Below, in pieces: positions 45,935 through 48,686 of a stretch of DNA of 64,000 nt (positions are counted from its first letter, which is position 1; every line of letters begins with the position of its first letter). Source of the DNA: Escherichia coli (lineage in GTDB: Bacteria > Pseudomonadota > Gammaproteobacteria > Enterobacterales > Enterobacteriaceae); assembly GCF_051903065.1 (NCBI RefSeq), contig NZ_CP178438.1; one strand, written 5' to 3'. The position numbers were made by a program, and so were the translations under genes. Below the pieces are notes generated by a model. It was not told where the DNA came from. It worked only from the letters and a program-made list of their open reading frames with translations, and made no database searches.

Positions 45935-47545
45935 CTATTTAATTCCCTCATCATTGATAAGGTTGGACATCTCTTTCAACATGAGAGTCATTGAAGCTTT
46001 CGACCAATTTAGCGGAATGATAGGGCTTGGCGCTTCATGCAAAGTTCCCGACTTGTGGATATAGTTATAGCTTTCGGGAAGTGCCATTTCTGGTACGCTC
46101 CTGCCATTTGCACCAATCATATTCTCGCCTGTTATTTGGGCCAATGATCTATTCATAAATTGCACTGAGTCATTCAAATACTCTTCTTTTCTTGATTCTT
46201 TATAAACAATTGCTGCTGATTTTGCATACCATGAGTCAAAAAACCATTCTGCTTCTGTTGATGGAATGAAGCTCTTTTCTCTTTTTGCATGCGAATTTTG
46301 ATCGGTATCAGTTTTAATATCATTGAACCAAAAATTTGCCGACTGATAATTATCCTTCTCGTATCTTTTTATACCATACGGACCTGCTAGTTTTTTAACT
46401 ATTTTTAGAACTTGCTCTTTTCTTCTGGTGTTTATCTTTGAAAGATTTGCAGGATAAATAACATTAAGTAAAGCCGCATCGCCTTCTCTGTAATGTTTAT
46501 CTTTTTCCAGATAACCTGGGGATTCTCCCCCTAAATCAAGCTGTAACGTTATTCTTTCATAACCTTTATCTATGAGGTGGTTCAACCTCGTTGTTGAAAG
46601 AGTTTCATCCAGTTCATTGACTTTAGCTTCGCGTAGTAAATCAGAGACAAAAACAGAGTCTTTCTTCGAGAGTAGGTTTGACAAACGTTCCAGTCCAGAG
46701 GTCACCAGTGCAACGGAAGATGTGTTTAATCGGGCATCTTCCTCCCACGCTCCGGAATCTTCCATAACATAGAAATTGGCTTTATCCAGATAAGCAATCA
46801 GCAGCGCAACCGATTTTAGTCGGTCACCTTTTTGCCAATCTTCAGCGTTAATAGTACCAGTATTGATTGCTTGTATAAGGAGATCAAGATAAAGACCTAA
46901 CGCATCATTTTGTTTATGGTTCCACAGCTGCGGCTTGCCTTCTTCCTGCACATCTGCCATCACGGGGGAGTTGCTGTCAAATCGGATATGCACAGCATTC
47001 ATTTGCCCGGGAATACCATCCAGTCGTTTTGGGTTGCTAATGATGTCCTGCATCCGCTTAATCTGGTCGGGCGTAGACATATAATCCCACAGGGTGAGCA
47101 GAACCTTTTTTGCGGCTACACTATTTCCCTGGTCTGATACTAATGCCATATAGCCCCATAAACTATCCCTCAGCCAGACAGCATCATAGTGGGTTTCTGC
47201 CGCTGTTTTGTCATCTTCGAAAGTAGAAGCAAGAATAAACGTTCCCCAGGGTTTCTCCGTCAACGTTAACTTTCGTGTGTTTTCTGTTAATGTTAGCAAT
47301 CCTTGAATTTCGTCTTTGGTATAGTGGCTCTTTATTTCATTTTGTAATTTGGCTGAGTGAATCAGAAGACGATAATTAGGATACTTATCTGGATTTAACG
47401 ATAAATAACTTTTATCTGTTGCTGCCCCCGTGGAATTAAGAATGTTAAATACAGATTCACTCGTCACTTCTGCCCCTGTCGCCTGGCATGTGCCGCACGA
47501 AAATATACCAGCGAGCAGAAGAGTTAATGCAGATTTCCCTTTCAT
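45935..47545 (-). CDS. Putative exported glycoside hydrolase family 15-like protein (YgeQ-like), apparently intact
   Basis: About 536-aa ORF from MKGKSALTLLLAGIFSCGTCQA (signal or lipoprotein-like); contains AVWLRDSLWGY, reminiscent of the glucoamylase-type fold. Family assignment is from memory, not a search. Confidence 0.5.
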   Translation of the reverse strand: MKGKSALTLLLAGIFSCGTCQATGAEVTSESVFNILNSTGAATDKSYLSLNPDKYPNYRLLIHSAKLQNEIKSHYTKDEIQGLLTLTENTRKLTLTEKPWGTFILASTFEDDKTAAETHYDAVWLRDSLWGYMALVSDQGNSVAAKKVLLTLWDYMSTPDQIKRMQDIISNPKRLDGIPGQMNAVHIRFDSNSPVMADVQEEGKPQLWNHKQNDALGLYLDLLIQAINTGTINAEDWQKGDRLKSVALLIAYLDKANFYVMEDSGAWEEDARLNTSSVALVTSGLERLSNLLSKKDSVFVSDLLREAKVNELDETLSTTRLNHLIDKGYERITLQLDLGGESPGYLEKDKHYREGDAALLNVIYPANLSKINTRRKEQVLKIVKKLAGPYGIKRYEKDNYQSANFWFNDIKTDTDQNSHAKREKSFIPSTEAEWFFDSWYAKSAAIVYKESRKEEYLNDSVQFMNRSLAQITGENMIGANGRSVPEMALPESYNYIHKSGTLHEAPSPIIPLNWSKASMTLMLKEMSNLINDEGIK

Positions 47546-47778
47546 AAAATATTCCATCAATCGTTTGTTAAAAGCGTAGATAACCACTTATTTAACAACT
47601 TGAAAATAAGGTATTTTACCTGGGTTGTTATAAAAGGATTGCATTGCGTAAACGCTTTTTATTTACAAAAAAATGGGGAAGTGTTACGGCGATTGCGAAA
47701 AGTCTGAAGCGATTGAATTAAGATAATATAGAAAATCAGATACAACAAAAATGGCAGGTTGATGAGGTGAAGATAAAT

Positions 47779-47852
47779 TGGAGCGGGCGAAGGGAATCGA
47801 ACCCTCGTATAGAGCTTGGGAAGCTCTCGTTCTACCATTGAACTACGCCCGC
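47779..47852 (-). tRNA. glyU: tRNA-Gly (anticodon CCC)
   Basis: Reverse complement reads GCGGGCGTAGTTCAATGGTAGAACGAGAGCTTCCCAAGCTCTATACGAGGGTTCGATTCCCTTCGCCCGCTCCA; cloverleaf with CCA end. Confidence 0.95.
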
Positions 47853-47931
47853 TTCGAGATGCGTAAGGCATTATAAACCTTACGCTCTCCTTAGCAAGTG
47901 CCGCGCTGCTGACTGCTGATTAATTCGCCAT

Positions 47932-48686
47932 CAGCATTTTGGCTTGCTGCCCTGCGGCGGCAAGTAACGTAGCGGATCAATTGCCGTTGCACGGTAACGA
48001 ATCTGGAAATGCAGGCGAACAGATGCCGCATCCGTGCTCCCCATGGTGGCGATTTTTTACCCAGCCTTCACGCTTTGCCCATTATTTACCAGCATCGTGT
48101 CATTATGGGCGTAAGCCGTAATGTAATCTTCACTGTGTTTAATCATGATGAGATTACCGTAGCCACGCAGCTGGTTGCCCACATACACCACCTTTCCTGC
48201 ACCCGCGGCGTAAATAGGTGTACCCCGTGGAGCTGAGATATCAATCCCTTTATTGCCGCCATCTGCTGTCGAATACGGCATGATAACTTTCCCTGTCGTT
48301 GGCCATAACCAACAACGTTGCCCTACTGGCGGCCAGGAAGATTTCGGTACCGCTGATGACGGTGTAACCGATGCGGTTTTGGTCGTTGATTTGGCGGTTG
48401 ATTTACGTGTACTACTGCTACTTTTCGCCCCACCCAGTTTTAGTTTCTGACCAACTTCAATGGTGTAAGGGGGGGAAATGCCGTTCAGTCGCGCCAGCTC
48501 TTTTACGCTGGTTCCCGTGGTGCGCGAAATACGATATACCGTATCCCCCCGTTTCACGGTGTAAACGGAGCCGGAATACGTTCCTGTATCGGATGATTTG
48601 CTACCCGAACAGCCCACCAAAAGCAGTCCAACCGATAACAACATCACGATACCCAGAGATTTTTTATTCAGGCGTCCCGCACTCAA
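47932..48686 (-). pseudogene. ygeR: LysM/M23-peptidase lipoprotein YgeR interrupted by an in-frame TAA
   Basis: Probable TTG start (AGGAAAG upstream) giving MSAGRLNKKSLGIVMLLSVGLLLVGCSG. Frame stops at 48057-48059 after ...NNGQSVKAG. The next 34 in-frame codons encode [41 protein letters not shown], the conserved M23 C-terminus. Confidence 0.75.

Follow-up and report, generated by a model that had tools for sequence, protein, structure and literature searches.

An intact pkgA gene at the glyU end of a degraded ETT2 island in Escherichia coli encodes a predicted exported protein of glycoside hydrolase family 15

The pkgA gene lies at one end of the ETT2 island of E. coli, and its position raises the question of what the gene product does and whether that function belongs to type III secretion. 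In a review of ETT2 (PMC3977695, Table 1), ECs3736/pkgA, the homologue of b2863, is given as "phosphorylase kinase and glucoamylase", and ECs3737, the homologue of b2862, is placed where the cluster meets glyU. For EC042-3075, the paper describing the EAEC 042 genome (PMC2808357) says likewise, citing Pallen 2003. The putative glucoamylase encoded by pkgA has been speculated to be an ETT2 effector (Pallen 2003, relayed by PMC2808357 and PMC3977695). Here, we analysed a window of 64 000 nt of E. coli chromosome that, over pkgA, is 100% identical to strain 23CRST027 (NZ_AP045789.1). [quoted passage not shown]

The locus contains an uninterrupted ORF on the minus strand (45935..47587), which is 550 aa in length if started at GTG 47587, and which has in-frame ATGs at 47557 (giving 540 aa) and 47545 (giving 536 aa). 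ATG 47545 is likely to be the start of pkgA, as it is the RefSeq start and agrees with the N-termini of the orthologues: the 536 aa form begins MKGKS..., lining up with MKRKS... in Escherichia albertii and MKGKY... in an enterobacterial contig, L010. The 540 aa start is used in one RefSeq record. The ORF is divided as follows:

45935..47545, minus strand: pkgA CDS, 536 aa plus TAG stop (ORF; 100% identical to the RefSeq CDS WP_001625848.1).
47546..47587, minus strand: upstream in-frame extension (GTG 47587, ATG 47557), probably 5' UTR rather than coding, given that orthologue N-termini start at MKGK/MKRK.

PkgA residue numbers throughout are those of the 536 aa form, the C-terminus of which is ...NDEGIK. 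The 536 codons and hundreds of full-length homologues far exclude a chance ORF. The ORF is intact pkgA, the counterpart of K-12 ygeQ/ygeP (b2863/b2862) and of Sakai ECs3736/ECs3737, and the RefSeq product name of WP_001625848.1 is "glycoside hydrolase family 15 protein". The gene is, therefore, already known, being named in the literature and annotated in RefSeq, and is a real but ordinary accessory gene.

The position of pkgA relative to the island edge was defined by the tRNA gene and by comparison with genomes that do not carry ETT2:

47779..47852, minus strand: glyU, tRNA-Gly(CCC), at which the ETT2 island is anchored in the chromosome (ARAGORN, Rfam).
47637..47778, no strand assigned: core sequence from glyU to the island boundary (ETT2-less genomes match from query position 92 of 47546-47800).

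Measured from ATG 47545, glyU is 234 nt upstream of pkgA. In ETT2-less genomes, yqeG directly adjoins glyU. Since these genomes align to the window only from approximately 47637 onward, pkgA is the outermost gene of the low-GC island on this side; GC is ~0.32-0.49 in pkgA and ~0.52 past glyU. The original prediction, of an intact ORF of 536-550 aa next to glyU and just inside the island edge, is thus borne out, as is its interpretation as a full-length GH15-like gene of which K-12 has a disrupted copy. An Rfam scan near pkgA gave glyU as its sole match, and a promoter and terminator scan at pkgA found sites no more numerous than in shuffled sequence. The remainder of the island is heavily degraded. 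IS903B stands in place of everything from a truncated ygeH to sctN, sctN itself carries an internal stop, and the needle, inner-ring and export-apparatus genes are absent, so the ETT2 of this window cannot function.

The family placement of PkgA was addressed with profile, sequence and structure comparisons. The protein was expected to be GH15-like, and the Pfam profile PF00723 (GH15) matches it significantly at 24.1 bits against a gathering cut-off of 22 (E 2e-5), although the match is marginal and partial, extending over residues 108-317 of the 550 aa form and positions 16-207 of the 427 in the profile. More distant members of the PkgA family score 28-56 bits against the same profile, and an NCBIfam search with PkgA returned nothing useful. 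A single-sequence search of the PDB gave PhK beta as the sole match. With a 54-sequence family profile, PhK alpha was reached at E 2.6e-12 and PhK beta at E 1.8e-5, whereas true GH15 enzymes (KfIG and glucodextranase) were reached only at ~1e-3. An AlphaFold2 model built from the 54-sequence alignment (pLDDT 93.5, pTM 0.92) has a GH15-type fold, with which a Foldseek search agrees. PkgA therefore adopts the (alpha/alpha)6 barrel of GH15, and its clade stands on the PhK-like branch of the family. A phmmer search among 1.8 billion proteins returned only 454 cluster representatives at E <= 1e-3, from which we take the clade to be small and distinct; by sequence comparison it is the closest bacterial relative of the PhK alpha/beta D1 domain. 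A tblastn search of PLSDB for plasmid carriage matched mislabelled chromosomes of E. coli and, distantly, a homologue in Embleya, and nothing else. This Embleya protein was considered as a bridge to canonical GH15 and was rejected, being another member of the PkgA family.

GH15 enzymes are inverting alpha-glucoside hydrolases in which the general acid Glu lies in region S3 and the general base Glu in region S5, in the alpha11 to alpha12 loop, and in which a conserved Asp (Asp56 in KfIG) binds O4 and O6 of the glucose in subsite -1 (PMC12446779). To place these residues in PkgA, we used a reference sequence for Aspergillus niger glucoamylase that is an exact match to residues 1-442 of 3EQA. HMMER profile alignments to PDB chains end near residue 400, and hhalign against the A. 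niger glucoamylase was run with forced global or local alignment. The predicted active site comprises the following features:

47165..47176, minus strand: W124-L-R126-D127, GH15 region 1, predicted to bind the subsite -1 glucose (aligns with W52/R54/D55 and with KfIG 'AWLRD').
46739..46747, minus strand: W267-E268-E269, with E268 the predicted general acid, corresponding to W-E-E of GH15 region S3 in the alpha5 to alpha6 loop (HMMER and hhalign; invariant).
46361..46366, minus strand: R394-Y395, predicted subsite -1 (glucoamylase R305-Y306 by global hhalign; invariant).
46073..46078, minus strand: P490-E491, with E491 the predicted general base (weak local hhalign match, E 0.07; invariant).

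The WLRD motif that the original prediction had picked out is present, at residues 124-127 (47176-47165), and its R126 and D127 align with the Arg/Asp pair (glucoamylase R54/D55) by which GH15 enzymes bind O4 and O6 of glucose in subsite -1. Profile alignments pair Y120, W124, R126, D127 and W208 of PkgA with Y48, W52, R54, D55 and W120 of glucoamylase, and W267, E268, E269 and R394 with W178, E179, E180 and R305. HMMER also pairs E268 with the catalytic Glu185 of PhK alpha and with KfIG 'WWEE'. At the C-terminal end, the weak local hhalign match (E 0.07) pairs LPE491SYN with MSE400QYD and PLNW514SKA with DLTW417SYA, and in the AlphaFold2 model E491 lies in the loop joining the last two helices, the site of the base in GH15 (PMC12446779). 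Across 54 homologues of 24-76% identity, the mapped active-site residues, including E491 and W514, vary little or not at all; WLRD, W267-E268-E269, R394-Y395 and E491 are invariant in this alignment. As read from the alignment, such conservation marks a functioning enzyme whose -1 subsite is specific for glucose, and we infer catalytic activity and glucose specificity for PkgA.

This pattern also bears on whether PkgA, like the D1 domains of PhK alpha and beta, could be a non-catalytic carbohydrate-binding or scaffolding protein that keeps the GH15 fold without hydrolysis. The best sequence matches of PkgA are the PhK D1 domains themselves, and PhK D1 alpha keeps both catalytic Glu residues, yet is inactive on maltose, isomaltose and glycogen (PMC10978961). 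However, all GH15 -1 subsite residues and both predicted catalytic Glu residues of PkgA are invariant down to 24% identity; such invariance is typical of active enzymes, whereas in PhK beta some of them are no longer present (PMC10978961). PkgA is, moreover, a single-domain protein without partner domains or conserved neighbours, and we regard a non-catalytic role as improbable. The inertness of PhK D1 alpha on three alpha-glucans suggests that the substrate of the PhK-like branch may differ from that of classical GH15.

Export of PkgA was likewise part of the original prediction, which described an N-terminal signal or lipoprotein-like sequence. The N-terminus, MKGKSALTLLLAGIFSCGTCQATGAE, has a basic n-region (K2, K4) and a 10-residue hydrophobic core, with a Kyte-Doolittle maximum of 2.5 in a 10-residue window, and LTLLLAGIFS-C17 fits the PROSITE PS51257-type lipobox rule. 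The signal was assessed by pattern and hydrophobicity:

47495..47545, minus strand: predicted signal peptide with lipobox, MKGKSALTLLLAGIFS-C17 (Cys17 codon 47497-47495; pattern and hydrophobicity test).

With its Sec-type signal and the lipobox at Cys17, PkgA looks like a lipoprotein of the periplasm or the outer membrane. At position -2 the lipobox, I-F-S-C, is atypical, and cleavage by signal peptidase I at CQA|TG, six residues past Cys17, is a possible alternative. All of nine intact E. coli alleles have Cys17, which is also conserved in E. albertii; the orthologue there has a more canonical lipobox, VLAC, at the equivalent position. The orthologues from L010 and Yersinia have signal peptidase I-type signals instead of a lipobox. 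Among full-length close homologues, 73 of 112 have a hydrophobic N-terminus and 19 of 112 a lipobox; those without a signal are mostly from Clostridiales, Bifidobacterium and Elusimicrobiota. As residue +2 of PkgA is Gly rather than Asp, the Lol sorting rule of E. coli predicts outer-membrane anchoring. We infer both the lipidation and the localization of PkgA from these sequence signals.

Part of the genomic context favours a link to the T3SS. In E. albertii, as in E. coli, the gene order is actS, glyU, pkgA, an ortT-like gene, eivF and sctC, so that in both species pkgA lies within the ETT2 island near eivF and sctC. The L010 homologue, of 65% identity, adjoins prgH-prgI-prgJ-prgK-orgA, and the same locus also contains genes for a PipB/SopD-like pentapeptide protein, an ankyrin-repeat protein and ParA/SopB. 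This proximity to effector-like genes, together with the fact that the nearest solved sequence relatives of PkgA are the eukaryotic PhK alpha and beta, favours the published view that PkgA is an ETT2 effector injected into host cells, where it would imitate the glucoamylase-like domain of PhK, or act as that domain does, and so alter glycogen metabolism.

However, among the homologous loci compared, the association does not extend beyond these genomes. A genome-wide scan identified ~80-85 loci with pkgA homologues from other lineages, outside Enterobacterales, namely Commensalibacter, Bdellovibrionales/Oligoflexia, Endozoicomonas, termite-gut Elusimicrobiota, Planctomycetota, Synergistaceae, Mycoplasmataceae, cyanobacteria, planctomycetes and Nitrospira, and no T3SS genes were found within 10 kb of any of them. 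When all ORFs of the window were compared by tblastn with 88 homologous loci, T3SS genes were found only in E. albertii, plus one regulator in L010. Clustering of the ORFs within 6 kb of pkgA homologues at the 88 loci gave no recurrent neighbour family. The homologue is a singleton in Commensalibacter and Bifidobacterium. A GH32 gene lies near the Commensalibacter homologue, an arrangement that is not general, and a 75 nt 'gene' called beside the Yersinia homologue is not a tRNA.

A T3SS effector would be encoded with a functional T3SS and have an N-terminus without a Sec-type signal; in this window, PkgA has neither property. A Sec-type signal with lipobox would send PkgA to the periplasm and not into a T3SS, its orthologues likewise have Sec signals, and Gram-positive lineages contain signal-less cytoplasmic homologues. 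In this strain and in many others, pkgA is also intact although ETT2 is unable to build an injectisome. The Sec signal, the lack of T3SS genes at the other loci and the non-functional ETT2 of the window make the published effector idea unlikely, and we would now give it little credence.

The position of pkgA near the eivF end of the cluster, eivF being the invF homologue, recalls the invH-invF arrangement of SPI-1, where the lipoprotein gene invH adjoins invF. A pilotin role for PkgA was considered for this reason and rejected, as PkgA looks like a complete, conserved enzyme and is widespread without secretins.

The distribution of pkgA in E. coli is patchy. Among 5426 complete genomes, 3988 have a match, 2981 have a match to at least 80% of the gene and 1438 have none; DNA identity is 97-100% across the species. 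In a K-12-type genome, a 264 aa YgeQ is followed by a 92 aa ORF and then by IS2. As stated for ygeP/ygeQ in the original prediction, the K-12 locus is disrupted: alignment revealed a nonsense codon at position 265 and loss of all sequence after nt 1137 (codon 379) by IS2 truncation, which removes the predicted catalytic base. In O157:H7 (Sakai and TW14359) there is a 5 nt deletion at codon 187, and TW14359 is flagged as frameshifted. The codon-265 stop also occurs in strain 2452, whose copy is not truncated, and strain LA3 has a frameshift and an internal stop. Short pkgA fragments of 90-100% identity are numerous among protein clusters. The repeated inactivation of pkgA across E. coli lineages indicates that the gene is dispensable.

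The surviving coding sequence is nevertheless under purifying selection. When further full-length copies were sampled at even steps down the match ranking, 9 of 10 were intact. In four of these nine, pkgA abuts only a SpaN/EivJ remnant, and a large ETT2 deletion ends ~12 nt beyond the stop codon of pkgA. Among nine intact E. coli alleles pN/pS is 0.15, with Cys17 and all key residues unchanged, and dN/dS of pkgA against E. albertii is 0.076, with dS saturated. That pkgA is a functionless remnant, unbroken here by chance within the general attrition of ETT2, as the independent lesions, the many short fragments and the 1438 matchless genomes might suggest, is improbable, given the low pN/pS and dN/dS, the conserved catalytic residues and lipobox Cys, and the deletions that stop just short of the gene.

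Taken together, our favoured reading is as follows. PkgA would be an enzyme with one domain, belonging to the phosphorylase-kinase-like branch of GH15 and exported by the Sec pathway by means of its N-terminal signal peptide. Lipidation on Cys17 is most likely in E. coli and E. albertii, and the +2 Gly would then direct the protein to the outer membrane. As a predicted inverting exo-alpha-glucosidase, it would hold the non-reducing-end alpha-glucosyl residue in subsite -1 with Y120, W124, R126, D127, W208, W267 and R394; E268 would serve as proton donor to the glycosidic oxygen, water would be activated by E491, and the product released would be beta-glucose. The gene would have arrived with the ETT2 island, yet its product apparently works apart from the type III machinery.

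We also entertain, as a doubtful extension of the favoured reading, the idea that PkgA and its ~450 cluster-level relatives could represent an active bacterial form of the PhK glucoamylase-like domain with an alpha-glucoside specificity unlike that of any characterized GH15 enzyme, PkgA itself being an outer-membrane lipoprotein. If this were true, such a specificity would account for the inertness of PhK D1 alpha, despite its intact active site, towards maltose, isomaltose and glycogen, and the substrate of PkgA would hint at the ligand bound by the PhK D1 domains. As a member of the bacterial clade closest to PhK D1, E. coli PkgA, which is easily expressed, could shed light on the eukaryotic domain. 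The value of the locus as a discovery is small, as the GH15/PhK similarity, the glyU-end location and the decay in K-12 and O157 are already in the literature or RefSeq. The label "putative ETT2 effector" fits poorly with the Sec signal, the T3SS-free relatives and an intact pkgA beside a gutted ETT2.

Compared with known systems, pkgA occupies the same locus as ECs3736-ECs3737 of Sakai, EC042_3075 of EAEC 042 and ygeQ-ygeP of K-12, between eivF/ECs3735 and glyU; the window allele is intact at 536 aa, whereas the Sakai/TW14359 and K-12 alleles are broken. The PhK alpha and beta subunits (PDB 8JFK) are eukaryotic, cytosolic proteins of ~1100-1200 aa with five domains and CaaX farnesylation, for which no hydrolase activity was detected (PMC10978961). 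PkgA, in contrast, is bacterial, 536 aa in length and single-domain, with a predicted Sec/lipoprotein signal. It does not have the D1-D5 architecture, the ~1100-1200 aa length or the CaaX motif of a PhK regulatory subunit, and its matches on the PhK chains span chain residues 40-340, inside the N-terminal D1. The Kribbella flavida isomaltose glucohydrolase KfIG (GH15, PDB 5Z3A) shares 15% identity with PkgA and is cytoplasmic, whereas PkgA has ~90 additional N-terminal residues and several insertions. Classical GH15 glucoamylases and glucodextranase (A. niger 3EQA, Thermoanaerobacterium 1LF6 and Arthrobacter 1ULV) share 12-15% identity with PkgA, which differs from them in having neither starch-binding nor beta-sandwich domains and in being covered by the Pfam GH15 profile over its first half only.

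The ETT2 type III secretion island is gutted in the window strain, as seen in the region from 37396 to 39659, where two features were identified:
37396-38364, IS903B, in place of the C-terminal end of ygeH and all that followed up to sctN
38382-39659, sctN, carrying an internal stop

The genes lost to the IS903B replacement are pbl, etrA, org, epr, epa and eivJ/eivI. A large ETT2 deletion was also observed in four other E. coli strains (Eco_24-2013, VTB96777v, STEC435 and C2; loci L094-L097), in each of which it ends approximately 12 nt downstream of the stop codon of pkgA, the GH15-like gene that is the last gene of the island before glyU. In these strains pkgA is intact, with a SpaN/EivJ fragment abutting it. 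The end point is shared across all four loci, which suggests that they represent one common type of deletion that spares pkgA.

Comparison of the window gene (45935-47545) with its E. albertii counterpart (locus L009, 8001-9617) revealed 76% amino acid identity, with a dS of approximately 2.1, a value that is saturated. Divergence between the two species is much higher at pkgA than at its neighbours, as the corresponding identities were 88% for eivF, 85% for sctC, 95% for sctV, and 95-97% for actS and xdh. The excess divergence of pkgA suggests either an old allelic lineage or recombination affecting pkgA alone.

Between eivF and pkgA, inside the secretion island, lies a short ORF:
45689-45868, minus strand, 59-aa ORF with the annotation GhoT/OrtT family toxin (a ydcX homologue; ECs3735 in Sakai)

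The ORF is retained at the equivalent position in E. albertii (Pfam PF10753), and no antitoxin is annotated near the window copy. The locus is an orphan gene encoding a membrane-toxin-like protein.

On the glyU side of pkgA lie two further features:
47693-47770, 78-bp segment directly 3' of glyU, present in the window
47931-48686, minus strand, actS (ygeR), the core gene across glyU from pkgA, flagged as a pseudogene by RefSeq with an internal stop

The region 47546-47800 is covered to at least 80% in 3845 of the 5426 E. coli genomes. The 78-bp segment is shared by the window and most E. coli, whereas K-12-type genomes lack it, which means that K-12 has lost a short stretch separating glyU from ygeQ. 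The longest ORF of the window actS is cut off early, at 48057.

Elsewhere in the window, one pair of sRNA genes represents ordinary features of the core genome:
19830-20114, minus strand, tandem OmrA and OmrB sRNA genes (Rfam, 96.6 and 86.1 bits)

Homologues of pkgA were found in other settings. At a Yersinia enterocolitica locus (L003, 3748-7458), the homologue lies near an invasin-like gene and is adjoined by two large proteins of 848 and 332 aa, for which no signal peptide and no Pfam or NCBIfam match was detected. A metagenomic protein of 849 aa (P0201) combines, in one fused chain, Effector-associated domain 1 (EAD1, PF19955) at its N-terminus with a distant PkgA-family domain at residues 409-841; EAD1 is typical of conflict and signalling systems. 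Finally, an enterobacterial Logan contig (DRR526056; L010, 1-16659) encodes a 65% identical homologue flanked by a prgHIJK-orgA secretion block and sopA/parB-type plasmid partition genes, followed by genes for an ankyrin-repeat protein and for a pentapeptide protein resembling PipB/SopD. This contig may represent a plasmid-borne type III secretion system of the SPI-1 family, together with candidate effectors.
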